Origin: a virus
Taxonomy: Duplodnaviria; Caudoviricetes
IMG/VR virus record: IMGVR_UViG_3300020577_009596
Coordinates: 1-64,000 of that record
Length of the DNA: 64,000 nt
Direction: 5' to 3' (one strand)
Shown in pieces: positions 37,438 through 59,296 of this stretch. The notes beneath the pieces are model-generated. The model made no database searches. It was not told the origin of the DNA and worked only from the letters and a program-made list of their open reading frames with translations. Every line of letters starts with the position of its first letter. Within the stretch, counting starts at the first letter, position 1. Made by a program: the position numbers and the translations under genes.

Positions 37438-38304
37438 CTAGTAGTTCGTCCACACGCATTCCGTCATGATCCGCTTCTTCTTCCCGCCCGCCGCGTGGTT
37501 GTGGATGGCCTTCTCGTGACGCCTCCAACCGAACCGCGCGGCGTAGGAGTCGTAAAGATCGCTGCGATAGCCGCTGAGAAGGAATCGTCCTTGGAGCGAG
37601 CCTCCGGATTCCCGCGACGACACAAGTGCATTGAGCAGAGCTGCGTGCTCACCTTCCGTCATCTCGTGCTCGTATTCGCCCGTGGTCGGGTCGAGGTAGA
37701 ACAGCGTTCGCGGGCCGTCCTGCGAGCGGATCACTTCAAGAGCCGGTCGGTTCAGGATCAGGACCCTCCTCATCCGGGCGTGAACCTCAGGCAGTCCCTC
37801 GACGCAGCTCAGCCACGCGGACACCTCGGCGTTCATCCCGCGGCGAACTCGCGTCTTCGTGACCGCGGTGAACTCCTTCATCCTCCCGGCGTAGGACTGA
37901 CGGCACCGGACGAAGAATGTGGCCGCTCTGTGAACCGTCTCCCCGTAGCCGTCCGCTCGAAGTATCGAATTGACGGTCGCCTCGTCGTACTCGGCTTGGC
38001 TGAACGGTATCGCGTCGACCAGTCTCTTGAACTGGTTGAACCCCTCGGTAGACTGGAGAGTTCTCCAGAAGTCAGTCAGCCCGCCGTTCAAGTCGTTGGC
38101 GACCTCGCTGATCCCCTCCGGGTCGTTCTGGAGGAGGACGCTGCCACCGCCGAAGTACGGTTCGACGTAGTGGAGGTATCCGTCCGAGTCGCCCCGCGGA
38201 GGCATCAGCGAGATGATCCACTCGGTGAGGTAGTGTTTGCCGCCATGCCACTTGAGCGGCGGCGAGACGGGTCGGTACGGAGCCTTCTTGACGAACGGCG
38301 GCAT
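37438..38304 (-). CDS. DNA adenine methyltransferase (Dam/D12 type) with damaged DPPY motif
   Basis: LKWHGGK, YVEPYFGGGSV, EVANDL; motif IV reads FYLDPTTGEY. Confidence 0.8.
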   Translation of the reverse strand: MPPFVKKAPYRPVSPPLKWHGGKHYLTEWIISLMPPRGDSDGYLHYVEPYFGGGSVLLQNDPEGISEVANDLNGGLTDFWRTLQSTEGFNQFKRLVDAIPFSQAEYDEATVNSILRADGYGETVHRAATFFVRCRQSYAGRMKEFTAVTKTRVRRGMNAEVSAWLSCVEGLPEVHARMRRVLILNRPALEVIRSQDGPRTLFYLDPTTGEYEHEMTEGEHAALLNALVSSRESGGSLQGRFLLSGYRSDLYDSYAARFGWRRHEKAIHNHAAGGKKKRIMTECVWTNY

Positions 38305-38885
38305 CACTCCCCCTTGACCTGCTCTTCCAGCTTGGCTCCGCACGCACAGGTCGGGACCCCGACCTCGCTCACCCACTTGCGGCTCGTCGAGCAGCGGAAC
38401 CCGCAGTCGCAGACAAGCGTGACTCCGGTCGGCTGCCGCTTGGCCTCGACCGTCTTGAGCTGCATGACCTCGTGCGGGTACTTCCCGAGCCTCCCGACGA
38501 TCCGCTTGAGGGACTCCTCGAGCCGCTCTCCGGGCATCACCGAGGTCGGCTTGCCCCGCGTCAGCCCGACGTGACGACAGACCTTGACGAAGCCCCGGCC
38601 GTGAGCCGCCTCGACCCCGGCCGCGACGTGGGCCAGCTCGTGACAGACGACCCCGGCGACCTGGATCGGGTCGGCGATGAGGGGCGTGATGAAGATCTCG
38701 TTGAGTCCGGCCGTCGAGGACTCGAGGGCGTGGCACTCACCGAGCACCTGACGCTTGCCCGGACGACCGCGGCTGATCGGCCACCCGACCGTCAGGCGGA
38801 ACGGCTTGAGGGCGAACCCCTTGAATAGGGGCGTCACCTCGGTCGACAGGTCGGTCAGCCACTGCTCGCGGTTCATCGTCGCCAC
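38304..38885 (-). CDS. SprT-like zinc metalloprotease
   Basis: NREQWL, VCHELAH, HGRGF, CDCG...CACG. Confidence 0.8.
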   Translation of the reverse strand: MATMNREQWLTDLSTEVTPLFKGFALKPFRLTVGWPISRGRPGKRQVLGECHALESSTAGLNEIFITPLIADPIQVAGVVCHELAHVAAGVEAAHGRGFVKVCRHVGLTRGKPTSVMPGERLEESLKRIVGRLGKYPHEVMQLKTVEAKRQPTGVTLVCDCGFRCSTSRKWVSEVGVPTCACGAKLEEQVKGE

Positions 38886-39728: not shown

Positions 39729-41984
39729 TCATGACTTGTCGACCTCCTCCAGGAGGCGGCGGACCCGGTCGGTGAGCACCCACCTCGGCCGCTCGCCCAG
39801 CCCGCTCGCGGTCGTGCTCGGCTCGGTCACGTCCGCCGCCCCGATCTTCTTGAGAAACCGGAGCAGGTCCCGGCAGCGGCCGTCCGAGCTGACCGACGGG
39901 GTCACGGCGGTGAGATACTTGACCTGCTTGCCGAGGAGCCCCGACGGGTCCTCCTTGCTCTTTCGAATGAGGCTCCGGGCGAGGTCGAGCGTGACCCCCG
40001 CCGCGGTGTCGAGGGCGACCTTGCGGACCCGCCGCATCACCTCCTCGTCGACCTCCGTCTTGTTGAGGACGACCGCGAGGCAGTGGGCGAGGCGGGTGAT
40101 CTGGATCGCGAGGCGGGCCGGCATCTCGCGGTTGGCGACCTCCTCCTGCAGCGCACTGGGCCGGGCACGCATGAACGAGACGAGCCGGGCGAGCTGCCCG
40201 CACCTGCGGAGCCGGTCCTCGGGGAACGTCACCCGCGAGGCGAGATCCTTGGCGTTGGTCCGCAGGTAGCCGACGTACCCGCCCGTCAGCTGCATCATCT
40301 CGACCATGTCCGGGTCGTGCTGGCTCTCCAGCGTCCCGTCGGCCTCGAAGGACATGTTGCGGTGGGCGCGGTTGACGACCCGCCAGACGATCTCGTCCTC
40401 GAGGTCCTCGTCGATCCCCGACATGATCGTGCACTTGAGGAACCGCTCGCCCAGCTCGGACTGGTCCATCTGCCGGAGGGAGTCGGTCCCGCACAGGATC
40501 CACACCATCCGGATGCCGGTGTAGTCCCGGCTCGTCATGTTCCGGGCGGAGGTGCGGCTGGAGCCGTCGTAGATGTCGCGGGCCTGGCTGAGGATCCGGC
40601 CGAGGTCGTCGGCCTTGAGGAGCGTGTCGCCGTCCTTGGTGACCAACGCCATGTCGTACAGCTTCTTGACGAGCGAGTGGTCCTCGGTCCCGTCGGCGTC
40701 GGTCTGGTAGTTGCTGTGGAACCCCTTGAACGTGCTCACCGCCTTGACGAACTTGCGGTTGATCGAGAGGGCCTCGCACAGCACAGTCTTTCCTGTCGAC
40801 GGCGGCGAGATGATCATGGGCCAGATCGGGTCGCCGAGCAGCTTGGTCGACGCGATCGAGGCCAGCATGACGGAGAACGCCACGTCGAGCCCGTCCGTCC
40901 ACCGCATCGCCTTCCGGCAGGCCGTCACGAGGCTCCTCCAGTTGTCGCACGGCTTGCAGTGGATCTCGACGTCGCCCTCCGCCGCGGGGGTCTCGCCGTC
41001 CGGGAGCCGCTCGCCAGGAACGAACGCGGACGGAACCGGCTTGACCCGCTCGAGCAGGCCGCCGAGGATCCGTACCCGGTCGGCCGCGTCGGTCCCGTCC
41101 CGCAGGGCGTCCCGGAGGTCGTAGCCGGAGGGCACGTCGGGGTCGAACCCGAGGTCGCCCCAGCGGAGGTAGCGGACCTCCCGTGGGCACTCGTCCGCGG
41201 CCCCGAGGATGCCGACCGCCCGCTTCATCGCCGCGAACCCGGACGGCTCGATCGTCCGCCCCTCGTGCTCGCGGGGGTGGTCCGAGTCGAACATCAGGCT
41301 CACCCGCTTGCCGCCGAGGAGCGGAGCCCACCGCTTCAAGGGCTCGCCCACCGACCCGCAGCCGGGGATCGCCATCACGTTCACCTGCCGGGCCAGCGTC
41401 GACCCGCTCGTCGTGTACGCGAGGCCGTCCGAGTCCCTCCGGGCGTTGCCCATCGCCTCCTGCAGGGCCATCCCGTCCCACGGCCCCTCGACGACCCAGA
41501 CCTCCTGCCGCTTGGCGTCCCACGCCGACCGGTGGAAGCCGTGGCCGAGGGTCGGGGTCGGGTAGAGCGTGCCCTTGCCGGTGACCCGGTCGCGGACGTA
41601 CTTGTAGAGCTGGACCAGCTTCCCCTCGGCGTTGTAGCCTGGGAGCAGCGGGGTTTGGGTCCGGTCGAACCGCACGCCCCACTCGCGGAGCGTCTCCCAC
41701 CGCAGCAGCCCGCGGCCCTCGGCGAGCGTCCGGTACAGGGACTCGTCCTGGCTCGCCCCCTCCCACACGGCGCGGACGAACGTGGTCGCGTTCCCGGCTC
41801 CCTTCTCATTTCCCGTCCCGCAGACGAAGCACTTGAATATCCCGGTCTTGACCTCGACCCGGAGCTTCTTGGCCTTCCCGCAGAACGGGCACTCGCCGGT
41901 CGCCCACTCCGCGTCCCCTTCGTGCTCGAGTCGGACTCCGTGGAACGTGTAGGGCTTGAGCATCTTGGGCACTTCCGTCGTCAT
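39729..41984 (-). CDS. Primase-helicase (Zn finger + TOPRIM + P-loop ATPase)
   Basis: CPFC..CFVC, VVEGPWD, MFDSD, GYDLRD, SPPSTGKT. Confidence 0.85.
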   Translation of the reverse strand: MTTEVPKMLKPYTFHGVRLEHEGDAEWATGECPFCGKAKKLRVEVKTGIFKCFVCGTGNEKGAGNATTFVRAVWEGASQDESLYRTLAEGRGLLRWETLREWGVRFDRTQTPLLPGYNAEGKLVQLYKYVRDRVTGKGTLYPTPTLGHGFHRSAWDAKRQEVWVVEGPWDGMALQEAMGNARRDSDGLAYTTSGSTLARQVNVMAIPGCGSVGEPLKRWAPLLGGKRVSLMFDSDHPREHEGRTIEPSGFAAMKRAVGILGAADECPREVRYLRWGDLGFDPDVPSGYDLRDALRDGTDAADRVRILGGLLERVKPVPSAFVPGERLPDGETPAAEGDVEIHCKPCDNWRSLVTACRKAMRWTDGLDVAFSVMLASIASTKLLGDPIWPMIISPPSTGKTVLCEALSINRKFVKAVSTFKGFHSNYQTDADGTEDHSLVKKLYDMALVTKDGDTLLKADDLGRILSQARDIYDGSSRTSARNMTSRDYTGIRMVWILCGTDSLRQMDQSELGERFLKCTIMSGIDEDLEDEIVWRVVNRAHRNMSFEADGTLESQHDPDMVEMMQLTGGYVGYLRTNAKDLASRVTFPEDRLRRCGQLARLVSFMRARPSALQEEVANREMPARLAIQITRLAHCLAVVLNKTEVDEEVMRRVRKVALDTAAGVTLDLARSLIRKSKEDPSGLLGKQVKYLTAVTPSVSSDGRCRDLLRFLKKIGAADVTEPSTTASGLGERPRWVLTDRVRRLLEEVDKS

Positions 41985-42011: not shown

Positions 42012-44549
42012 TCACGCCGTAGCAGTCGCTATTCTCAAGAGGTCCGTCAGTGAATCACGAACTCGGTCCGCTGTCCAAGCTACCTCTGCCAGCCGCCGAC
42101 GTTGGGCAGATGCGAGTGAACGTAGACCGATCTCACCCAGTCGTTCTACCGCCGACCGGTCGCTCGCCTTGAGATATGGGTCACCGAGGCAGGCAGCCTC
42201 AGCCGGGTCCGCATTCAGTACACAGCCCGCGTCTGCAGCCATCAAGTACCGTACTCGCCACCATCCGCTCCCGGCGTGAGGGTGCGCCGGGCTGATCACC
42301 CCCCACGCTCGTTCGTAGACGGTGAACAGTTCTGACTCTGGGAGCCGAGGCTGCGCGTTCTCACCGGCAGGGCCGATACCGCCCTCGCTGTGGTCTGAGT
42401 TGCCGTAACCTTCGACCGGCCACGTCGACGCAGTGAGCGGCTTACGGAGTAACGACGCCTGTACCCATCGCTTCTCCTTACTGCCCGCGTAAGTCCTGTC
42501 GTACCTCAACGCGAATGGCGTCGGATCTACGCTGACGACGACGTCCGACGGGATCCCGAGGAGTGAGACATCACCGTCACCGAGGACCGGGACCAGTACC
42601 GATCTCTGCCATCTCTCGGTCATACTGATGACGGTCTCGTGAACGATCGTCTTCGTTCTCTGATCGATGTCAGATCCGCGTAGTCTGAACAGTCTCTCCG
42701 CTGACCTGGCGCACGTCTGTAGTCCTGATATCAATTCGCCGACTTGCCAGTCGTCGATAGCGACTACTGCGTCGGATCGTTGCGACAACGCCCACGCCGC
42801 GCCGTGAAAGTAGTTCGACGTGATCGAGTTCGGCTTGTTAAGACACGCGACGACAGCGTCATAGGCTGACAGGTCTTCTCCGGGCGTCACGGCTCGCCAG
42901 TCCACCGCATAGCCCATCGACTCGAACGCGGCGGCCCAGCAAGACGCTGCGGTGACGATCTTGAGCTGAGTCTTCTTCGATCCGACTTGCATCGGCGTCG
43001 AGCCGGTCAGTAGCAGGGTCGGCTTCCCGTAACCGTCGAACCGCCTTATCGTTGCGGTCCCCAGCGTCTCGCGCGGTTGGGGCGTCCTCGTCACGACTTT
43101 CTTCGGCCACGGCGGGACGTCGGCCGTCCCGGCCTCTACGAGTTTCTTGTAGTTGTAGTAGACGTCGTTTACGCGAGTGGTACGACCTTCCCAGTTTGCG
43201 TGGACTAGTTCTACCAGTCGCTCGGGCGAGTACTGACCAGTCATCCATAGACGTCGGATGAACTCGCCAGACCCTTCGCGGATCTTCGGGCGCTCCGGGT
43301 CGCCGTCGTCCCGAACCGTAGGAGACGAGACGATCGGCTCAGGGTCCGACCGCCGCGAGGTCTTCGTGGGCCGTCGACTATCTCGCTGAGCGACCGCGAT
43401 GGACGTCTCGAGGCAACTATCCAGAGTCGACGAAGAATCGGAGTCGGCGTAGCTGGCCGTCAGGTCGATCGCGTCCAGTCCAGGGCGTCTCAGATCGACT
43501 ACCGTGACGGTCTGGCCATAGTCTACTGAGGACGCTGCCATCGCGGCCCGTACGGACGTCGCGAGCCACTCACCGACGTTTGGCATGACCGCCCGCGCGA
43601 GTAGTGACGCGTGACCTCCCGGCGACCCTTCGAGCCAGAAGTCTTGAGGGTATCCGCACAAGGCTCGCATCTCACGCGTCCCTACGAACCTGTCCTGTTC
43701 AGGGTGCGCGTAGAAGTTACCGATGAACGCTCCCATCGTCTCGTCGTGACGGAGCCGTCGGCAGTTGAAACTCGGACGGCCCGACACCTTTCCTTGGGCA
43801 TTCCGCGTCGGGTTCTCGACCGTCCTGTCAAACACGTCAGAGAGACGTTCGCCGGGTCGGCACTGAGGTATCCACTGAGACGGGTTCGCCCTACCTTTGG
43901 ACGACTTCCCGCACTCGTACTCGCCTGGATCGTCTCCGACTGACGCGAGGACCTCGCCTACCGACGGCGGGTCTGCGAAGTCGAAGTCGAATCGTAAGTC
44001 CAGTTCTGGGCGATAAGCCACGAAGAAGAATCGTTTACGGGACTGAGGGAGCCCAGTCCACTTGGCGTCGATCAGTAAGTGAACGACCGAGTAGCCGTTC
44101 GCGGTAGCTTTCAGGGTGAAGGCGTCGACGACTTCCCTCCCTTTGGTGTAAGCCTGGCATACCGACTCGAGAGCAAACACCTTCGGCCGAACGACATCGA
44201 ACACTCGGAACGCCCGATACCAGCAACCGAGACGCGGGTCTTCCCTCCACGCTTCCGGCCCCCGCGTCGTACTGATCCCCGCGCTACTAAAGATGGCACA
44301 CGGCGGGTTCGACACGAGCAAGTCGGTCCGTCCCGCAAACTCCTCGGGAGACCAGTTCTCGCTTCCCACCCTGACGTCGAGGTCGGGCCAATTCGCCTTG
44401 GCCGTCGCGACCCCATAGTCGGTGTCCTCGAGATGAGCGAGGACGTCGAACCCCGCCGCCTTGACCCCGACGGTGAACCCCCCGGCGAAGATGTGAACTC
44501 CCAAGGCGGTGGGGCGTCTCTCCACAGACTTCTTCACGAACGGCGGCAT
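42012..44549 (-). CDS. C5-cytosine DNA methyltransferase fused to a BGT-like GT-B glycosyltransferase
   Basis: FAGGF, SNPPC, ESV, QSRKRFF, GYPQDF, AVMP; C-terminal LLLTG...AIDDWQ...GWWRVRYLMAADAG. Confidence 0.75.
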   Translation of the reverse strand: MPPFVKKSVERRPTALGVHIFAGGFTVGVKAAGFDVLAHLEDTDYGVATAKANWPDLDVRVGSENWSPEEFAGRTDLLVSNPPCAIFSSAGISTTRGPEAWREDPRLGCWYRAFRVFDVVRPKVFALESVCQAYTKGREVVDAFTLKATANGYSVVHLLIDAKWTGLPQSRKRFFFVAYRPELDLRFDFDFADPPSVGEVLASVGDDPGEYECGKSSKGRANPSQWIPQCRPGERLSDVFDRTVENPTRNAQGKVSGRPSFNCRRLRHDETMGAFIGNFYAHPEQDRFVGTREMRALCGYPQDFWLEGSPGGHASLLARAVMPNVGEWLATSVRAAMAASSVDYGQTVTVVDLRRPGLDAIDLTASYADSDSSSTLDSCLETSIAVAQRDSRRPTKTSRRSDPEPIVSSPTVRDDGDPERPKIREGSGEFIRRLWMTGQYSPERLVELVHANWEGRTTRVNDVYYNYKKLVEAGTADVPPWPKKVVTRTPQPRETLGTATIRRFDGYGKPTLLLTGSTPMQVGSKKTQLKIVTAASCWAAAFESMGYAVDWRAVTPGEDLSAYDAVVACLNKPNSITSNYFHGAAWALSQRSDAVVAIDDWQVGELISGLQTCARSAERLFRLRGSDIDQRTKTIVHETVISMTERWQRSVLVPVLGDGDVSLLGIPSDVVVSVDPTPFALRYDRTYAGSKEKRWVQASLLRKPLTASTWPVEGYGNSDHSEGGIGPAGENAQPRLPESELFTVYERAWGVISPAHPHAGSGWWRVRYLMAADAGCVLNADPAEAACLGDPYLKASDRSAVERLGEIGLRSLASAQRRRLAEVAWTADRVRDSLTDLLRIATATA

Positions 44550-45028
44550 GCGGTCCCTCCCAGGACTGTCTCGGACAAGAGGTCTCTCAGAGCGGCGACC
44601 CGACGCGGGTCGTTCCACCAGCGGTTCAGGCCTGACGGGTGGGGCACCGGGACTACCGGGCGGCCCAGAGCCGGGGCGTGGACGGTCCGACCGTAGACCT
44701 CGGCGAGGGGGTTCCCCCTCCGCACCGCGCTCACGGCCGCGAGGGCGAGCCCTCCCGCGACGTACACGACCGGCCTCTCGGCGACGACGTCGACCAGTCT
44801 CGTCGCGACGCGAGCCGCGAGGTCCGCGTCCCACGGGTCGCCCTGAGACCCCGGCGGGTGGACGTTCAGACGGTCGCAGGCGTCGAGACTGAGGCCGATC
44901 CTGGCCAGCTTGACGCCGTCGGCCTCGTCGAACGCTCCGTCCCCGACGCACGCGGTCGCCCACTCGAGGGCGTCCCACTCCCTCGCCGACGGGCGGTTCC
45001 GCCTCTCGCCGATCAGGAGCGGTCTCAC
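44534..45028 (-). CDS. Uracil-DNA-glycosylase-superfamily protein
   Basis: LLIGE, RLNV, VPHPSGLNRWWN. Confidence 0.7.
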   Translation of the reverse strand: MRPLLIGERRNRPSAREWDALEWATACVGDGAFDEADGVKLARIGLSLDACDRLNVHPPGSQGDPWDADLAARVATRLVDVVAERPVVYVAGGLALAAVSAVRRGNPLAEVYGRTVHAPALGRPVVPVPHPSGLNRWWNDPRRVAALRDLLSETVLGGTACRRS

Positions 45029-45489
45029 AGCCTCTCCCTCCAGCTCGCGACGACGACTCCGGCCCGCCTCAGCACGTCGAGGCCCTCGGGCAGCCGGTAC
45101 TCGTCCCGGTACAGGACGGCGGCGACCGACCCGCTGTTGACGATCGCCCCCGCACACTGCTCGCAGGGCGACGCGGTGACGATCAGGACGAGGTCGGTCC
45201 CCGGCAGTCGCGGCTTGCTCAGCGCGGACGCCTCGCCGTGGCAGCACCCGCATAGCCCCGGCGAGTCGCGACGGCAGCCGTCGTTCGGCAGACCGGCGGG
45301 GGGGCCGTTGTACCCCACCGCGGCGACCGACGACAGGTCCGAGGTCACGGCCACGCAGCCGACCTGAAGTCGCCTGCAGGTCGACAGGGCCGCGAGGCTC
45401 TCGGCCAGCCCGGCGAACGCCCGCAGCTTGGCCCTCAGCCGGTCGTCTCCGGGAGTCCTCCCCGACAGGTAGTCGAGCGTCCTGCTCAC
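45025..45489 (-). CDS. dCMP deaminase-like
   Basis: STC.RLQVGC..GYNG..HGEASA..SPCEQCA. Confidence 0.85.
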   Translation of the reverse strand: MSRTLDYLSGRTPGDDRLRAKLRAFAGLAESLAALSTCRRLQVGCVAVTSDLSSVAAVGYNGPPAGLPNDGCRRDSPGLCGCCHGEASALSKPRLPGTDLVLIVTASPCEQCAGAIVNSGSVAAVLYRDEYRLPEGLDVLRRAGVVVASWRERL

Positions 45490-45827
45490 GGCGAGCCCTC
45501 CTCGACCTTCACTCCCGACTTGGCGGCGAGGTCCTTGACGAGCGCGTCGCCGAGGATCGCGTAGTTGGCCAGGTCGACGAACCGGCCGTGGATCGACTCG
45601 GAGGACACCTTGCCGTCCTTGCTGTACCGCATGATCGCCGTCACGTGCTTCATCATCAGCACCATCCAGGCCTGGAACGGCGTGCAGCCGCTCGCCTGGG
45701 ACAGCTCGTAGTAGTTCCGCATCGCGTCGTCCGTGCCCGCGCTGTAGTCCGCGTTCTTGGCGGCAGTGACGGCCCGCATCTCCTCGGTGAACGCGAGGAC
45801 GTGGGCGGCGTAGTCCGGGTGGGTCAT
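45486..45827 (-). CDS. Nucleotide-modification-associated alpha-helical protein (DUF1599-like)
   Basis: AKNADYS..RNY...ESI..RFVDLANYA. Confidence 0.65.
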   Translation of the reverse strand: MTHPDYAAHVLAFTEEMRAVTAAKNADYSAGTDDAMRNYYELSQASGCTPFQAWMVLMMKHVTAIMRYSKDGKVSSESIHGRFVDLANYAILGDALVKDLAAKSGVKVEEGSP

Positions 45828-46219
45828 CGCGGGAACACCTCCGAGAGCAGGCCGACGTTGTCGGCGTGAGTGGGGGCGACCCAGCCCTCGGGCTTGACGA
45901 GGTCGGGGTGTCCGAACCGGCTGGGACGCTTGGGGTTCGAGCCCGCCATCTTACTCGAGTTCGCGGCCATGACGCGGGACCAGGCCTCGCCGACGTCGAC
46001 TCCGTAGAGGTCGAGCGTGCCGACCGCCACGACGCACAGGTCAATCAGGGCGTCCACGGCGTCACAGGCCGTCGTCGCGGCCTCGAGCTCCCCCAGCTCC
46101 TCCCTGAGGAACGCGACCCGAAACCGGAGGAAGTCGGCCAGGAGGGCCGGATCCATCCCCGAGACGGTGATCCCGAACCTCTCGTGCATGAGGTGTAAGT
46201 CCTTGTGCCAGCTCGTCAT
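45824..46219 (-). CDS. MazG/PRA-PH-like nucleotide pyrophosphohydrolase
   Basis: FLREELGEL..DALIDLCVV..VMAANSSK..DLVKPEGW. Confidence 0.8.
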   Translation of the reverse strand: MTSWHKDLHLMHERFGITVSGMDPALLADFLRFRVAFLREELGELEAATTACDAVDALIDLCVVAVGTLDLYGVDVGEAWSRVMAANSSKMAGSNPKRPSRFGHPDLVKPEGWVAPTHADNVGLLSEVFPR

Positions 46220-46927: not shown

Positions 46928-47128
46928 ATGACGACTCTCACGACCGACCTCGCCGAGGAGTTCTCCGTCTGGAGCGGCGGGCACGAGTTCGACGAGGTCC
47001 CTCCCGACGAGCGGGAGTGGTTCGCCGACGGGCGGTCCGAGGAGGACGTCCGCGCGGTGTTCGCCGACCAGCCCGAGGACGTCCTCGAGGGGCTCGTCCT
47101 ACGGCTGGCGGTTGGCGACGAACAGTGA
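46928..47128 (+). CDS. Small acidic protein
   Basis: GAGG RBS; D/E-rich. Confidence 0.5.
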   Translation: MTTLTTDLAEEFSVWSGGHEFDEVPPDEREWFADGRSEEDVRAVFADQPEDVLEGLVLRLAVGDEQ

Positions 47129-47800
47129 CCAGGTCCTCGGGAACAGTCCCGACAGGATCCGGCCCACGGCGTCCGCATAGCAGCGGATCTCCCACTGGGC
47201 CTTCTCGTCCATCCGCAGGGTCAGGAAGGCGAGCCAGTTCCGCAGGTTCGCCGACGCCCTCATCCGCGAGTACCGACCCATGTTGACCGCGAGGCGGGCG
47301 ACCTCCTTCGGGACGCCTCGCCTCAGCCCGCTCTGGTACGTCTCCTCTGCCCTCCGATACAAGTCCGCCAGCTCGGCCAGCCACTCGCGAGCCGACCCCT
47401 CCGTGACCGCCTCCGACCCCCTGACCGCGCCCGCCTGCCGGTTCGTCCCGTGGACGGACAGGCACCGCTCGACCGTCGGCTCGTAGTTCACGTCCGGAAT
47501 CGGCGTGTACCGCCCGCTGAGCTCGTTGTAGCTCTGCGTTCGGTGGCGGTGCCACTCGCGGAAGACGACGATCGGGGCCTGGACCTCGATCACCGCCCCG
47601 GCCATCTCGAACGGCGTCGCGTGTCGGTTCCGGTAGAGGTACTCGAGCAGGCCCGCGTCGCCCCTGGGGTGCCCCTCGTAGGGCTCCCACGACACGAATC
47701 CGGACTCAGTCGACATCCTCGCCGCCTCGATCACTCGCTCGTCGCTGCCCCAGCTCTCGACGAGCTCGACGTAGCCGTGGTCCAGAATCTGCTCCCTCAC
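47099..47800 (-). CDS. thyX: Flavin-dependent thymidylate synthase
   Basis: HATPFE, EWHRHRTQSYNELSGRY, AQWEIR. Confidence 0.95.
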   Translation of the reverse strand: MREQILDHGYVELVESWGSDERVIEAARMSTESGFVSWEPYEGHPRGDAGLLEYLYRNRHATPFEMAGAVIEVQAPIVVFREWHRHRTQSYNELSGRYTPIPDVNYEPTVERCLSVHGTNRQAGAVRGSEAVTEGSAREWLAELADLYRRAEETYQSGLRRGVPKEVARLAVNMGRYSRMRASANLRNWLAFLTLRMDEKAQWEIRCYADAVGRILSGLFPRTWSLFVANRQP

Positions 47801-48807
47801 CGCTGCCTCCTCTCGAGCCACGCTGTCGCTGCCGCACGCCAGTCGTCGGCCATGATCTGAGCAGCGAACTCTGCCGCGAGATCGGACAAACCGTCCCGCC
47901 ACGCCCGATGGGCTAGTAGCGTCGGCTGAGCCACGTCTTGTAGGAACGGCTCATCGAACCTCTCCGGCGGTAGTCTCGCGTGGGAGTAAATCTCGACGAG
48001 TCGCAGTAGCTCCTGATCGAACGTCCTCGACTCGCGAACGAGCGGGACAGTCGCAGGATACGGCTGGTTAGCTGGGCCGGTATCCTCCCACGCCAGCCAC
48101 CTCTCTGGATCGAAGTTGTTCAGGTAAACGTGCAGATTGTTCGAGACCTGCCAGTACCGACCGACTCCGATTCCAAGTTGAGCCGCAACGTACTCCTGGA
48201 GGAAGCTGAAGGTGCAGTAGTCCTCTCCCAGGGTCCCCCAGATCAAGTCGTTCGATCGGTTGAAGACTGTGGCGTCGAGCAGACCCTCGTCGTTGACCGC
48301 AAGCAGGACGCTTAGGTTACAGCACACGTCTTTAGATGAGTCGACCTTAGCCAGGTCGTTCTCAACGTCCCACATCTGAAGTACGGCGCGGCGAGATTCC
48401 GGCTTGTCGTGAAGATGTCTTACCAGGATGTTCAATTGATCGACGAAGCGGTCCTCAGTATGAGACGCCAGCGCAGTCCGCCACCGCCTGCCGTACGAGC
48501 CGTTCGACGTGACCCCGTCGTCAGAGAACGAGGCGTACCGCTTAACATAGCGAGCGGGTGCAGCGACGTCGTCGCGTCCAGCCAAGAGCCAGAGCGAGTG
48601 ATAGAGGTGAAACATGGGGTTGGCGTCTCGTTTCGCATTGAGTAAGACCCTTTCGCGAGGGTGACTGTACTCAATGATCACCGGCTCAGTGACTTGAATG
48701 ACTCTCCCTGCTCGAGAATCAGACTCTCTGGTTGGATACTCTTTTGAATAAAACCCTCTCACAACCCCACTGAATGCGTCATTGATGTTTCGGAACTTGA
48801 GATGCAC
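47797..48807 (-). CDS. Thymidylate-synthase-superfamily pyrimidine hydroxymethylase (predicted dCMP-type)
   Basis: RDANP, SDDG..YG.RW, SRRAV, KDVCCN, NRSNDLIWGTLGED, NLHVY. Confidence 0.75.
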   Translation of the reverse strand: MHLKFRNINDAFSGVVRGFYSKEYPTRESDSRAGRVIQVTEPVIIEYSHPRERVLLNAKRDANPMFHLYHSLWLLAGRDDVAAPARYVKRYASFSDDGVTSNGSYGRRWRTALASHTEDRFVDQLNILVRHLHDKPESRRAVLQMWDVENDLAKVDSSKDVCCNLSVLLAVNDEGLLDATVFNRSNDLIWGTLGEDYCTFSFLQEYVAAQLGIGVGRYWQVSNNLHVYLNNFDPERWLAWEDTGPANQPYPATVPLVRESRTFDQELLRLVEIYSHARLPPERFDEPFLQDVAQPTLLAHRAWRDGLSDLAAEFAAQIMADDWRAAATAWLERRQR

Positions 48808-49423
48808 GTTCGCTCCTCTTCTTAGCAGACTCACTGAGTTTTCGACGGTGCTCAGCCGAGCAAGCCTTACCTTTTCTAGGTGGATTTGTCACGTTCCTGA
48901 CGGCAGCTCGCTCAGCAGACTTCTTACGACACAACTCGCTAGGCTTACGCCCTCTCAACGACTCACTGATCAACTTCTTCGTCTCTTCTGAGAGTGAGGA
49001 TCCTCGGCGTATAGTATTACCCTTCATTCTCTCTGACCTACGGGATCTCTCGTCGTCCGACACTTTACGGTTCTTCGCTGCTTCGCTTATCCGACGTAGT
49101 CCGTCCTCAGTATGCATGCCTTTAAACCCGCCGACGCCGGTCGCCGTATTGAACTTCGGCTTGAGAAGAGCTATCAGCTCTCGCTCTCTAGTTTGAGCTT
49201 GTTCGTCAGTATCAAACGGTTCGATCGACCATTCGATCGCATACCTGTCAGTTTCGAGTATCGCAACGAGACCGGGCGGTCTACCAGACCATGATGACTT
49301 GCCTGTAGGACGACCGCGGTTCCCGCGACCCTTACCTACCCATAGAACGTCTTCACCGATTCGCCACACGTACACGTACGGCTGCTTAGGGTCTTCGAGA
49401 GGTCTCTTTCTAGGCGTCGGCAT
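48779..49423 (-). CDS. GIY-YIG homing endonuclease with NUMOD3 repeats
   Basis: YVY..WVGKG...E.ELI..FN; HTED/SEETKKLIS repeats. Confidence 0.8.
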   Translation of the reverse strand: MPTPRKRPLEDPKQPYVYVWRIGEDVLWVGKGRGNRGRPTGKSSWSGRPPGLVAILETDRYAIEWSIEPFDTDEQAQTRERELIALLKPKFNTATGVGGFKGMHTEDGLRRISEAAKNRKVSDDERSRRSERMKGNTIRRGSSLSEETKKLISESLRGRKPSELCRKKSAERAAVRNVTNPPRKGKACSAEHRRKLSESAKKRSERASQVPKHQ

Positions 49424-49477
49424 AGTTAAACCTCTAGCCACCTCTATAGTAACCAGAAAGTTTAACTGAAACCAATT

Positions 49478-51577
49478 TTATAGCTTGAGTCTCCGGTGCT
49501 CGTCTCGGTCCCAGCTCGTCGGGCAGTACCCGACCGACACACGCAGCGGGACCCCGACGTCCTCGCCGCTCCGCTCCATGAGACGCTGGAGGCGGCGGGC
49601 CTTGGGAAGGTTCCGACGACCGCCCGCGGGCATCTGGAAGACGATCTCGTCGTGGACCTGGAGCGCGATCGTCGCGTCGAACCCGTCCCGACGCCACTCG
49701 CTCAGCTGCTCCTCGCAGCGGATCATGGCCTTGCTCGTACACCACATCGCGGTGGACTGGACGTGGTAGTTCAGGGGGAGCGTAGGGCTTATCCTACCCC
49801 ACTCCGACCGCGAGCACATCACGGGGTAGCCCCTGGCGGACCCGATCGACCGGTCGGGGATCGTCTCGACGTACCCGTGCCGGTTGGCGAACGAGACCCA
49901 CCGGTCCATCAGGGCGAACAGCTTGGTCAGTCGTCCGCGGATCAGGCCGTACGCTCCCGGCTTGTGGGCGGTGGTGTCGAACTTCTTCTCCATGCAGCCG
50001 TAAATCAGGGCGAACCCGGCGTTCTTACACCACTTGTACCAGGTCGACTCGTACCGTCGCTTGAACTCCCCGCGCTGGTCGGCCAGCGGCCAGAACAGGT
50101 CGGGATACATCGCGCTCGCGTTGAGCAGGTGGTACGAGCCGAAGTACGGCGGGTCGTCGGGCCGCTCGAACAGCTCGATCATCGCCTCCTCCTCCGACTC
50201 GTAGCCGGGGATCCGGAGCTCGATGTTCTCGTAGTCCATCGGCCACCACTCGTATCCCGGCGGCGGCCCGAACCCGTAGCGGAGGTTGAACCCCTCCTTC
50301 TTGCTGATGTTCTGCTCGTTCGGGTTCGAGCTGCTGAACCGCAGCGTACCCGTCCCGGTCGCGTTCAGGTTTGGATTGAGACGACAGGTATCCCCGTCGT
50401 TGAGAGGAACCCAGAACCGCCGGTACCCTTCCATGTACTGGACGGCCGTGTCCCGGCTCCGCTTGTCTCCTATTGCCTTTACGAAGTCGAGCTGCGGTCC
50501 TTCAGTCAGAGTCTCGACATAGGTCTGCATAGCCTCCTTGTTCAGGCTCGGCGACCCGCTGTCGGTCCTCGCCGCGATCGGGAGGGCGAGGTACTGCCGA
50601 CCCTTCCCGAGCGTACCGGGGACCTTCTTCCCCCGCTCGTCCCGCAGCGAGTCGCCGAAGCAGAAGTGGAGGAGACTGTCGTTGTTGCCGGACTTCGGGA
50701 GGTCGAGGTCGTACCCGAGCGAGGCCGCGATCTCCCGGCAGCGGTCACCCAGGTCGGCCCCCTCCCGCGAGTACCGGACGACCATCTCCTCGAGACGGCT
50801 CCGGCTCAGCGTGACGCCCCGCCGCTCCATCCCGAACACGACCGGTAGCAGCCTCCGCCGCTCCTGATAGATCTCCCAGAGGCCCCGCTCCCTCAGCCTC
50901 CGCTCCATGACCGGCCAGAGCATGACCGTCGACTCGGAGTCCTCGTTCGCGTACTGGGCCGTCACCGTCCGGTACGGGTGGTCCATCGGCAGCTTGTGGC
51001 GGTTCGCGTAGGCACGGGGCAGCCAGGTGTCCAGCTTCCACGGGCTCTCGTCCTCGCCGCCCTTCGCCCGCTTGGCCTTGTTCGCCTTGCAGGAGGGCAT
51101 GTCGGCCCGGCCCTCCTTGGCGAGAGCCCAGGTCGGGTGCTCCCGGCGGACCCTCCCCCGGACCTCGACGACGACGTCCCGCATCCGCTTCTCGGACGGC
51201 TCTATGTCGATCCCGAGATAAAACAGGACCATATCGGTCAAATTGTGAGGTTGATTACTAGCTAACAGATGTCCAGCTAGTAAGGTGTCCTCTACCTTCT
51301 CCCAATATGTGTCTATGTTAACCAGATCCCACAACCCTATCGAGTCGAGAGCGTGAGTATCGAAGCCGATGTTTTGACCTACGATTCGTTCTTGCTTTGT
51401 CAGCAAATCAGCAATCTTGACTAGGTCTTCTTGAGGGATATTCGGGGTTCGGGTGATCGGATTTACCGGCCAATCCCAAAACACAGGGTCTTTACCGTAC
51501 TCACATGTCGTCACGAGGAACGGCCTCGCCCCATGCCTCCAGTCAGACCCCGTAGTTTCACAGTCCAAAGCCATCAT
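49478..51577 (-). CDS. DNA polymerase family A with 3'-5' exonuclease
   Basis: LDCETTG, QNIGFD, TGTLRFSSSNPNEQN, DYENIELR, KNAGFALIYG, VHDEI. Confidence 0.95.
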   Translation of the reverse strand: MMALDCETTGSDWRHGARPFLVTTCEYGKDPVFWDWPVNPITRTPNIPQEDLVKIADLLTKQERIVGQNIGFDTHALDSIGLWDLVNIDTYWEKVEDTLLAGHLLASNQPHNLTDMVLFYLGIDIEPSEKRMRDVVVEVRGRVRREHPTWALAKEGRADMPSCKANKAKRAKGGEDESPWKLDTWLPRAYANRHKLPMDHPYRTVTAQYANEDSESTVMLWPVMERRLRERGLWEIYQERRRLLPVVFGMERRGVTLSRSRLEEMVVRYSREGADLGDRCREIAASLGYDLDLPKSGNNDSLLHFCFGDSLRDERGKKVPGTLGKGRQYLALPIAARTDSGSPSLNKEAMQTYVETLTEGPQLDFVKAIGDKRSRDTAVQYMEGYRRFWVPLNDGDTCRLNPNLNATGTGTLRFSSSNPNEQNISKKEGFNLRYGFGPPPGYEWWPMDYENIELRIPGYESEEEAMIELFERPDDPPYFGSYHLLNASAMYPDLFWPLADQRGEFKRRYESTWYKWCKNAGFALIYGCMEKKFDTTAHKPGAYGLIRGRLTKLFALMDRWVSFANRHGYVETIPDRSIGSARGYPVMCSRSEWGRISPTLPLNYHVQSTAMWCTSKAMIRCEEQLSEWRRDGFDATIALQVHDEIVFQMPAGGRRNLPKARRLQRLMERSGEDVGVPLRVSVGYCPTSWDRDEHRRLKL

Positions 51578-52116
51578 AGAAGATTCCTCCAAGTCCTTTT
51601 CTTGACAGCGTCTGCTAAAGCATGTTCAGAGACTTTGGGCTTAGTTACGGCGTAGATACGCGAAATAGACCATCCTTTCGAGTACAAGAATCTAGCTATT
51701 TTGACTTGTTCCTCGGTCATCCTCGCGTTGCCGTTCGCCGCCCCAGGACAAGGAGTACCCGTACCGGCTCTACTTTGACGTCCCTTTGACACCATGTCGT
51801 CAGAATTATCTTGGACCGTACCTTGGAATAAGTGATCCGGTCTCACGCAGCGGGGGGTGTCGCATTTATGAAGAACGAACAGCCCCGACTTGATGACATT
51901 CCCGGTTAGTTCGTAGGCTATCCTATGTGCTTTCTTTTCCCTGAAATGTCCGTAGCCGTTGACGGTGGCTGCGATCCACACCCAGCACTTACCGTGAACC
52001 GGATGGATTGGACCGTTCTCCTTATCTACTCTCATCCAGAACAGTCGCTCAACGTCAGTACCGCGATTGTTGGAGTGCTTCGAGAACTCTCCACGAACGT
52101 AGACACCCTTCGGCAT
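51574..52116 (-). CDS. HNH homing endonuclease
   Basis: CWVW..GYG..KAHR..LHKCDTPRCVRPDHL..DN. Confidence 0.9.
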   Translation of the reverse strand: MPKGVYVRGEFSKHSNNRGTDVERLFWMRVDKENGPIHPVHGKCWVWIAATVNGYGHFREKKAHRIAYELTGNVIKSGLFVLHKCDTPRCVRPDHLFQGTVQDNSDDMVSKGRQSRAGTGTPCPGAANGNARMTEEQVKIARFLYSKGWSISRIYAVTKPKVSEHALADAVKKRTWRNLL

Positions 52117-58726: not shown

Positions 58727-59296
58727 TCAGTTCGATCCCAGGACGTGCTCCTCGACCGCGTTGCGGACCTGGACCACCGCACGCTGGAACATCAGCCCCT
58801 GCTGGGCGATGTTGGCCCGGCCGATCGCGGCGGGGTGGACGGTGTGGATCGTCGGGACCTCGCGGTGCAGCTCGATCCGGACGTACCGGCCCGTCATCAG
58901 GTGGTGCTGGGCGACCTCGCCTAGGCAGACGATCAGCTTTGGGTCGCACAGCTCGACGATCGCTCGGAGCCGGGGCGAGCACTTCTGGACCGCGACGTCG
59001 TCGGGCTTGGTCACCTTGCGGCCGTCCTCGCCGACCGGGCAGCAGCCCACGACGTTCGCGATCGCCCAGCGTACCCCCTCCGGGACCGCCTCGGCGATGA
59101 TGTCGTCCTGCAGCTTGCCCGCGGGTCCGATCATCGGGATGCCGAACACGTCCTCGCTGTGTCCGGGAGCCTCGCCGACGAACAGCACGTCGCACGGGAC
59201 GGACCCGCGGACCATGCACACGTTCTTGCGGCCCTCGGCGAGGTGGCAACGCTGGCAGTCTCGCCAGTCTGAGTAGAGCTGCTGGAGCGGGGTCAT
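58727..59296 (-). CDS. Uracil-DNA glycosylase family 4
   Basis: CQRCHL, FVGEAPG..ED..G.P..GPAG, HPAA. Confidence 0.9.
   Translation of the reverse strand: MTPLQQLYSDWRDCQRCHLAEGRKNVCMVRGSVPCDVLFVGEAPGHSEDVFGIPMIGPAGKLQDDIIAEAVPEGVRWAIANVVGCCPVGEDGRKVTKPDDVAVQKCSPRLRAIVELCDPKLIVCLGEVAQHHLMTGRYVRIELHREVPTIHTVHPAAIGRANIAQQGLMFQRAVVQVRNAVEEHVLGSN

Follow-up and report, generated by a model that had tools for sequence, protein, structure and literature searches.

What does a phage do with a single polypeptide that joins the fold of a C5-cytosine methyltransferase (MTase) to that of a DNA glycosyltransferase (GT)? The gene that raises this question, here called the MTase-GT fusion, lies in a stretch of Caudoviricetes DNA that we refer to as the window: the first 64 kb (64,000 nucleotides) of the 101,556-bp IMG/VR record IMGVR_UViG_3300020577_009596, which is estimated to be 82% complete. 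The gene and its parts are as follows (AF2, AlphaFold2; HTH, helix-turn-helix; pLDDT, predicted local distance difference test score):

42012..44549, minus strand: MTase-GT fusion, whole gene, 845 aa; C5-MTase-like domain, linker, HTH-like module, GT-B glycosyltransferase
43515..44549, minus strand: C5-cytosine MTase-fold domain, aa 1-345; PF00145; model pLDDT 89; catalytic C84 at 44298-44300; R319 at 43593-43595
43134..43271, minus strand: three-helix HTH-like module, aa 427-472; from AF2 secondary structure
42015..43025, minus strand: GT-B glycosyltransferase domain, aa ~509-845; from AF2; D600 of the invariant DDWQ at 42750-42752; GSGWWRVRY conserved

The answer that we favor, and hold with moderate confidence, is that the fusion encodes a three-domain DNA-modifying enzyme of a T4-like, pre-replicative 5-hydroxymethylcytosine (5hmC, or hmC) pathway, with the N-terminal domain alkylating residual cytosine. 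The domains and folds, the conserved residues and the linkage of genes described below are observed, whereas which acceptor and donors are used, and how the domains share the work, is inferred from them. In the proposed pathway, a ThyA homologue of the type of T4 gp42 would make 5hm-dCMP, a MazG-like enzyme would shrink the competing dCTP pool, and the phage family A DNA polymerase (PolA) would incorporate hmC. The GT-B domain would then flip out 5hmC and add a sugar from a host nucleoside diphosphate (NDP)-sugar, in an inverting reaction like that of T4 β-glucosyltransferase (BGT), with D600 as the likely general base. The N-terminal domain would most likely alkylate cytosines that escaped replacement, leaving every cytosine modified, and its pocket suggests that the transferred group is possibly larger than methyl. 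Two small neighbors, one related to uracil-DNA glycosylases (UDGs) and the other DUF1599-like, would act as conserved accessories.

The open reading frame (ORF) at 42012..44549 is real: its ATG at 44549 lies behind a GGGAGGG ribosome-binding site, and its product begins MPPFVKK, as homologues likewise open with MP(P/K). A longer ORF from a GTG start, reaching to 44978, was rejected, as over its first 143 codons it reads the upstream gene out of frame, giving an Arg-rich product. Some 30 metagenomic phage homologues have the same three-part architecture at 40–62% identity and, together with Pfam and the AF2 models, bear out the three domains that an earlier note on this DNA had proposed. We found no description of an MTase-GT fusion in the literature. 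Relatives also show variant architectures, including MTase-UDG-GT, MTase-UDG, GT-GT tandem and intein-bearing forms. One of these, the 867-aa metagenomic homologue P0003, has two tandem GT domains and a small HTH-like module with no MTase domain, and it may add two sugars.

How far does the C-terminal half resemble a known DNA glycosyltransferase? Its AF2 model, built from 37 relatives, has a pLDDT of 91.2 and a GT-B fold. In a VIA-align comparison against 48,161 chains, T4 BGT ranks first (Z 17.2, rmsd 4.2 Å, 285/333 residues), with a superposition that spans residues 27-357 of the model and 1-351 of BGT; PimA (16.4), glycogen synthases (16.1–16.3), SenB (15.9) and T4 α-GT (15.8) are near-ties, within ~1.5 units. 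The best Foldseek matches are SenB and BGT (E ~1e-6, template modeling (TM) score 0.58–0.62). The earlier note had suggested a BGT-like GT-B fold and proposed Foldseek as a check, and both structural searches agree with it.

Sequence searches gave little. Neither the GT domain nor the 37 family members matched any Pfam model, PF09198 included, at E values up to 10; the sole profile match of the domain is phrog_14998, and a search of PDB sequences returned chance matches only. Against T4 BGT itself, BLASTP gave an E value of 0.14 in the wrong register and hhalign a probability of 3.9%, neither of which is significant. When T4 BGT was added to the family alignment with MAFFT --add, a heuristic procedure, the two were collinear from end to end, with D600 on the catalytic D100 of BGT, which follows β4, and R767 on R269, at the start of the C-domain helix that binds the diphosphate; D599/D600 and R765/R767 are invariant. 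In this heuristic alignment, the parallel drawn previously between AIDDWQ and a BGT motif is sustained by the placement of D600 of DDWQ. The second parallel, involving RVRY, stands as to place, with GSGWWRVRY...D falling on the BGT R269-VWETMASD helix, but its register is approximately two positions off. As far as the alignment goes, both parallels are positionally reasonable, and we infer from the model, at the level of fold, that the domain is homologous to BGT. By HMMER scan, the GT family comprises 550 representative clusters, mostly standalone proteins of 320–360 aa, and we found no description of it in the literature.

The GT-B fold is common to many enzymes that do not act on DNA, and PimA, glycogen synthase and SenB all lie near BGT in Z. 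It could be, then, that the domain glycosylates a protein, a lipid or a small molecule. We consider this very improbable: the domain shares a polypeptide with a DNA base-flipping enzyme and an HTH-like module, its gene is embedded in a nucleotide/replication module, and in four phage groups unrelated to each other the family occurs together with gp42-type enzymes.

If 5hmC in DNA is the acceptor, where does it come from? Four genes of nucleotide metabolism and replication lie upstream of the fusion:

45824..46219, minus strand: MazG-like all-alpha nucleoside triphosphate (NTP) pyrophosphohydrolase; PF01503 E 1.8e-6, phrog_671; presumed dCTP-clearing
47099..47902, minus strand: ThyX, flavin-dependent thymidylate synthase; PF02511 E 8e-40; keeps the dTMP supply
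47797..48834, minus strand: ThyA homologue of gp42/MilA type; predicted from signature residues to be a dCMP hydroxymethylase (5hm-dCMP synthase)
49478..51592, minus strand: PolA; PF00476, PF01612

In ThyA-type enzymes (E. coli ThyA numbering), Asp at N177 marks cytosine specificity, Asp at L143 a hydroxymethyl product, and Asn at D169 the 5-hydroxy-dCMP synthases (PMC13326640). The window homologue, whose best PDB match is the CMP hydroxymethylase MilA, has Asp at L143 and N177 and keeps D169. This is the signature of T4 gp42, and it is common to the ThyA homologues of the window, the relatives L008 and L004, DSL-LC01, Forza and Aeromonas phage 25; in the canonical ThyA that the last of these phages also encodes, used as a control, these positions are Leu (L143) and Asn (N177). 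The signature supports the earlier suggestion that 47797..48834 is a source of pre-made hmC. Two other assignments of this gene were ruled out. Since D169 is kept, the predicted base is 5hmC rather than 5-hydroxycytosine (5hoC), and the Asp at the L143 position excludes a dCMP methylase of the Xp12 type. A TET/JBP dioxygenase (PF12851) had no match anywhere in the 101,556-bp record, so the absence noted earlier for the window, with a genome search proposed to follow it up, extends to the record.

The link between the fusion and this module is conserved. We compared ten MTase-like neighborhoods: the window, those of the fused homologues P0022, P0007, P0006, P0017, P0009 and P0032, and those of the standalone homologues P0242, P0269 and P0210. 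A Thymidylat_synt homologue and a PRA-PH/MazG gene lie within 10 kb in all ten, whether the gene is fused or standalone, and many of the ten also contain dCMP deaminase and PolA. The two halves also occur as neighboring separate genes. Behind the MTase-like gene of the P0210 contig lies a gene for 349 aa, the size of the standalone GT P0039, whose own contig is equally long, and in L017 a MazG gene separates the MTase-like gene from the GT, which was identified by hhalign to the family (E 5e-68). Given the gp42-type/MazG module, the lack of TET/JBP and the presence of ThyA and MazG genes in ten of ten neighborhoods, the GT domain most likely glycosylates 5hmC in DNA.

Aeromonas phage 25 carries a member of the GT family and a gp42-type enzyme with no C5-MTase, which indicates that the sugar step is independent of the product of the MTase-like domain. 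This bears on a further alternative. Fusions often join consecutive steps, and the record has no TET; the N-terminal domain might therefore make a handle on DNA, for example by post-replicative hydroxymethylation of cytosine, and the fused GT glycosylate the product in a TET-independent, two-step reaction. We give this little credence, as the gp42-type dCMP hydroxymethylase and MazG found in every neighborhood already make hmC before replication, and Aeromonas phage 25 again runs counter to it. A TET-independent coupled reaction is likewise unlikely because of the gp42-type gene and the same counter-example, and the "new coupled reaction" between the domains that the earlier note had raised gains no direct support.

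Which sugar is added? The record yielded no NDP-sugar gene. Beside other members of the family, the GT relative in DSL-LC01 (L001, 11995-14131) adjoins a UDP-galactopyranose mutase, and that in L004 (17120-18040, the P0022 contig) adjoins a UDP-glucose dehydrogenase. The sugar probably differs between phages. Beyond the window, a possible GT-A (Glycos_transf_2) gene at 100370-101170 of the record, on the minus strand, scores 22 bits, just below the Pfam cut-off, and this candidate could encode a second sugar-adding enzyme.

What, then, does the N-terminal domain do? PF00145 spans aa 22-332 (E 1.4e-24, 87.6 bits against a cut-off of 22), and the NCBIfam dcm model TIGR00675 scores 64.8 bits, under its cut-off of 100.65. 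An AF2 model built from 26 homologues has a pLDDT of 88.9 and is matched by Foldseek to HaeIII (target TM 0.74), HhaI (0.70) and CmoX (0.65), as well as DNMT1 and MET1; a PDB search restricted to the C-terminal half of this domain had no match. Across the 26 fused homologues, over which the invariance of catalytic residues was scored, N81-P-P-C84-A85, E128-S-V, Q169/R171/R173, E41 and R319 are invariant. Of the "full Dcm motif set" claimed earlier, the Pro-Cys of motif IV (C84), the Glu of motif VI (E128) and Q169/R171/R173 of motif VIII are kept, but motif I is FAGGF and not FxGxG, PCQ has become PCA, ENV has become ESV, and GN(A/S)V of motif X has become ARAV. All of these changes are clade-wide, and two of them lie in the pocket: HhaI Q82 is replaced by Ala (A85) and HhaI N304 by Arg (R319), the latter as read from HMMER alignments to HaeIII and DNMT1 and from a BLASTP alignment to the CmoX of Synechococcus phage S-B43 (SpCmoX).

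The 120 closest standalone relatives (39–62% identity), over which the clade signature was scored, bear the signature of the fused form:

Position 81: N in 120
Position 85: A in 118, S in 2
Position 129: S in 120
Position 319: R in 106, Q in 13, K in 1

The invariant C84, E128, R171, R173 and R319, together with the same signature in 120 relatives, point to purifying selection on the active site. Judged by these residues, the clade defined by FAGGF, NPPCA, ESV and AR(G/A)V is distinct and well populated, not a decayed domain, and the catalytic apparatus is intact, with a predicted attack on cytosine C6 via Cys84. The more distant MTase-like proteins of DSL-LC01 and Forza, which accompany standalone GT relatives, carry a Lys where HhaI has N304, and their PF00145 matches begin only at profile position ~50, leaving motif I outside.

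In HhaI, the pocket that receives the transferred group is lined by Q82 and N304, and smaller residues in their place cut methyl transfer and admit larger groups; methylation by M.HhaI Q82A is down ~16-fold (PMC3526304). Since both residues are replaced in the whole clade, methylation by the N-terminal domain cannot be taken as established, and the earlier claim that this non-standard Dcm protein methylates unmodified cytosine is unsupported as written. The scheme that the note had built on it, in which one polypeptide methylates C and glycosylates pre-made hmC, remains plausible as glycosylation of hmC with alkylation of leftover C; it is methyl as the group that the pocket speaks against. 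The residues and the linkage suggest that the domain is active and part of the hmC pathway, with alkylation of residual cytosine the simplest reading. However, the altered pocket and the invariable tie to the hmC module leave room both for the transfer of a large group, CmoX-like or other, and for chemistry on 5hmC.

Several points weigh against the pathway as we have drawn it. The functions of both families are predictions throughout, and homology of the GT to BGT comes down to fold rank plus a heuristic alignment. Plain methyl transfer fits poorly with the residues that replace HhaI Q82 and N304. The nearest solved relatives of the MazG-like protein are a dUTPase-like enzyme (DR2231) and MazZ, and the 82% complete record yielded no recognizable deoxynucleoside monophosphate (dNMP) kinase for 5hm-dCMP; the related clusters L009, L010, L017 and L018 do contain kinase-like genes. 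Finally, efficient removal of dCTP would leave little unmodified cytosine for a C5-transferase.

One possibility that takes the pocket at face value is that the N-terminal domain is a CmoX-like C5-carboxymethyltransferase, which would use carboxy-S-adenosylmethionine (carboxy-SAM, Cx-SAM) to form 5-carboxymethylcytosine on residual C, with the GT taking 5hmC or esterifying the carboxylate. Like SpCmoX (PDB 8YF3; PMC12783734), the domain has a C5-MTase fold and PPC followed by a small residue; the two align over their full length (BLASTP E 1e-15), with R319 on R350, and the two HhaI pocket residues for the transferred group are both changed. In CmoX, the Arg at the N304 position binds the carboxymethyl of Cx-SAM (PMC12783734), and Lys or Arg in place of Asn at equivalent positions gives engineered MTases Cx-SAM activity (PMC13288465), which also counts for this explanation. 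Nevertheless, we consider it unlikely. CmoA is encoded alongside in 76% of candidate CmoX contigs (PMC12783734), whereas the window has neither a CmoA nor a CmoY partner, and CmoA (TIGR00740) had no match in the 82% complete record or in the complete DSL-LC01 and Forza genomes, with S-B43 as a positive control (E 2.5e-34); the host may supply Cx-SAM instead. The clade signature also differs from that of CmoX, with FAGGF for GGGG, NPPCA for SPPCS, ESV for ENV and an invariant N81, and the clade is always linked to the hmC module. CmoX is not the nearest structure to the model, and 13 of the 120 relatives have Gln rather than Arg at the R319 position. The gene upstream of SpCmoX, which we considered as a CmoA, is actually an Asn-synthase-like ligase.

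In four relatives, a small gene with a class-I SAM-MTase fold lies directly upstream of the C5-MTase-like gene:

L010, 9283-10011: overlaps the C5-MTase-like gene
L017, 9330-10004: overlaps the C5-MTase-like gene
P0006 contig
L001, 16518-17030

None is a recognizable CmoA, and the window has no such gene. The L010 gene was considered as a CmoA and rejected, since its similarity to CmoB and UbiG is merely generic. These genes could make or modify a cofactor.

It is also possible that the N-terminal domain acts without SAM on 5hmC or its glycoside, with Cys84 adding to C6 and thereby activating the 5-CH2-OH for exchange or removal, to give a new hypermodification. C5-MTases can reportedly catalyze such exchange and removal reactions on 5hmC in vitro, in work by Liutkeviciute and Klimasauskas. 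The tie of the clade to the hmC module in ten of ten neighborhoods is consistent with this, as are the altered motif I, the truncated PF00145 matches of the DSL-LC01 and Forza relatives, and the change of the residues beside C5 to smaller or basic ones. We nonetheless rate it as quite improbable: no candidate gene to supply a nucleophile was identified, the invariance of E41, the ribose-binding Glu of motif II, suggests that a nucleoside cofactor is still bound, and it would be awkward for two domains of one polypeptide to compete for the same base.

A more general alternative to alkylation of residual cytosine, which we judge less likely than not, is that the domain is no methyltransferase at all. 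It would belong to a clade of hundreds of metagenomic members, always tied to dCMP hydroxymethylase and MazG, that carries out an undescribed cytosine reaction and, with the GT, yields a hypermodification new to virion DNA. Candidate reactions may be the transfer of a larger anionic group from a cofactor not derived from CmoA, or Cys-mediated activation of 5hmC.

Three more genes lie around the fusion:

39729..41984, minus strand: primase/helicase; phrog_239, DnaG zinc ribbon; directly downstream of the fusion, with the same neighbor in L004 and on the P0007 contig
44534..45028, minus strand: divergent UDG-superfamily protein, 164 aa; GTG start at 45028; PF03167 23.4 bits, just below the cut-off
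45486..45827, minus strand: DUF1599-like small protein; weak PF07659 match, phrog_6802

The stop of the UDG-like gene overlaps the start of the fusion by 16 nt. Its product has GERRN in place of GEAPG in motif A, retains HPSG, and is 39–43% identical to the products of the genes that immediately precede MTase-GT in L008 and L004; copies of the DUF1599-like protein, 61–71% identical and with no relative in PDB, also adjoin MTase-GT in these two. Given that the UDG-superfamily partner is conserved directly upstream, that some relatives carry a UDG domain fused in between MTase and GT, or attached to the MTase alone, and that the cofactor pocket is altered, the MTase-like domain and its UDG-like partner might attack unmodified host DNA or repair deaminated bases, for example by converting C to U and then excising it, with the GT alone protecting the phage. 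We regard this as highly unlikely. The proposal is wholly inferential, the UDG-like protein has lost GEAPG, and the window encodes a separate, canonical UDG at 58727-59296 on the minus strand (PF03167 E 2.9e-18, GEAPG present), 14 kb from the divergent gene. The two UDG-superfamily proteins presumably have different roles in the phage.

Between the two large domains, the AF2 models show a disordered Ser/Asp/Pro/Arg-rich linker (aa ~390-411) and then three helices at aa 427-472, confirming the small helical middle domain described earlier. An atlas search with this HTH-like module gave weak winged-helix leads (FUR, ArsR, PadR and YonJ_N; TM 0.5–0.62). In some homologues, the module is relocated to the C-terminus, and in others it is replaced by a family-4 UDG domain. 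By its modeled fold, it probably helps to hold DNA.

How does the proposed pathway compare with known ones? The closest parallel is the glucosyl-hmC pathway of T4 (gp42, the dCTPase gp56, and BGT, CAZy GT63), with which it shares the gp42-type ThyA signature, an NTP pyrophosphatase, and a predicted GT-B DNA glycosyltransferase whose best structural match is BGT and whose D600 takes, in the heuristic alignment, the position of BGT D100. The window GT differs in that it shows no detectable sequence similarity to BGT or PF09198 and shares its polypeptide with a C5-MTase-fold domain and an HTH-like module. The pyrophosphatase is MazG-like, there are UDG-like and DUF1599-like partners, and the phage is of a PolA-type, high-GC kind and not a member of the Straboviridae. 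Phage clusters of MT, TET (5mYOX) and GT (PMC8256090; bioRxiv 10.1101/2023.12.21.572611) also bring a C5-MTase-family enzyme and a DNA glycosyltransferase together, but the window lacks TET/JBP, would derive hmC from a nucleotide-level enzyme, and has MT and GT in one polypeptide. GT-B-like enzymes have been associated mainly with thymidylate-synthase homologues (bioRxiv 10.1101/2023.12.21.572611); the words "fusion" and "fused" are absent from the text of that study. The 5hoC pathways of RB69, DLP3 and RL38J1 (PMC13326640) likewise combine a ThyA homologue, a dCTPase and GT-B DNA glycosyltransferases, and RL38J1 has a UDP-galactopyranose mutase beside its GT, as does DSL-LC01. The diagnostic D169N of these pathways is absent from the window ThyA homologue, which keeps the Asp.

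Phage DNA hypermodifications decide whether DNA is cut by restriction enzymes, CRISPR nucleases and modification-dependent defenses, and the enzymes that make them are a source of tools for epigenetic sequencing and DNA labeling. The locus described here reveals a large GT-B family that Pfam does not model, likely the DNA hmC glycosyltransferase of many non-T4 phages, with cultured carriers among Gordonia phages (Forza, GMA2), DSL-LC01 and Aeromonas T4-like phages. The fusion and its conserved linkage also place an atypical C5-MTase-fold clade in the hmC pathway. Because engineers mutate the same two pocket positions to let MTases transfer bulkier groups than methyl, the natural substitutions there make this clade a promising place to look for new chemistry of cofactor or substrate.

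The history of the module may differ from that of its surroundings. GC content at third codon positions is 0.72 for MTase-GT and 0.68 for the ThyA homologue, against 0.89–0.97 for the neighboring MazG, DUF1599-like, ThyX and primase genes, which hints at a separate or more recent acquisition of the former pair. A further gene lies between the ThyA homologue and PolA:

48779-49441, minus strand: NUMOD3/HNH-type homing endonuclease; low GC, 0.525

This gene, together with the LAGLIDADG/intein domains borne by the fusion homologues P0004, P0012 and P0033, indicates that the hmC module attracts selfish elements.

The window as a whole has a GC content of ~65% and contains no tRNA and no WhiB gene. 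Its proteins are remote kin of those of cultured phages, PolA being ~24% identical to actinophage enzymes. Farther downstream of the fusion, the ORF at 38304-38885 on the minus strand encodes a SprT-like protein with a HELAH zinc motif and a Cys-rich C-terminal segment.

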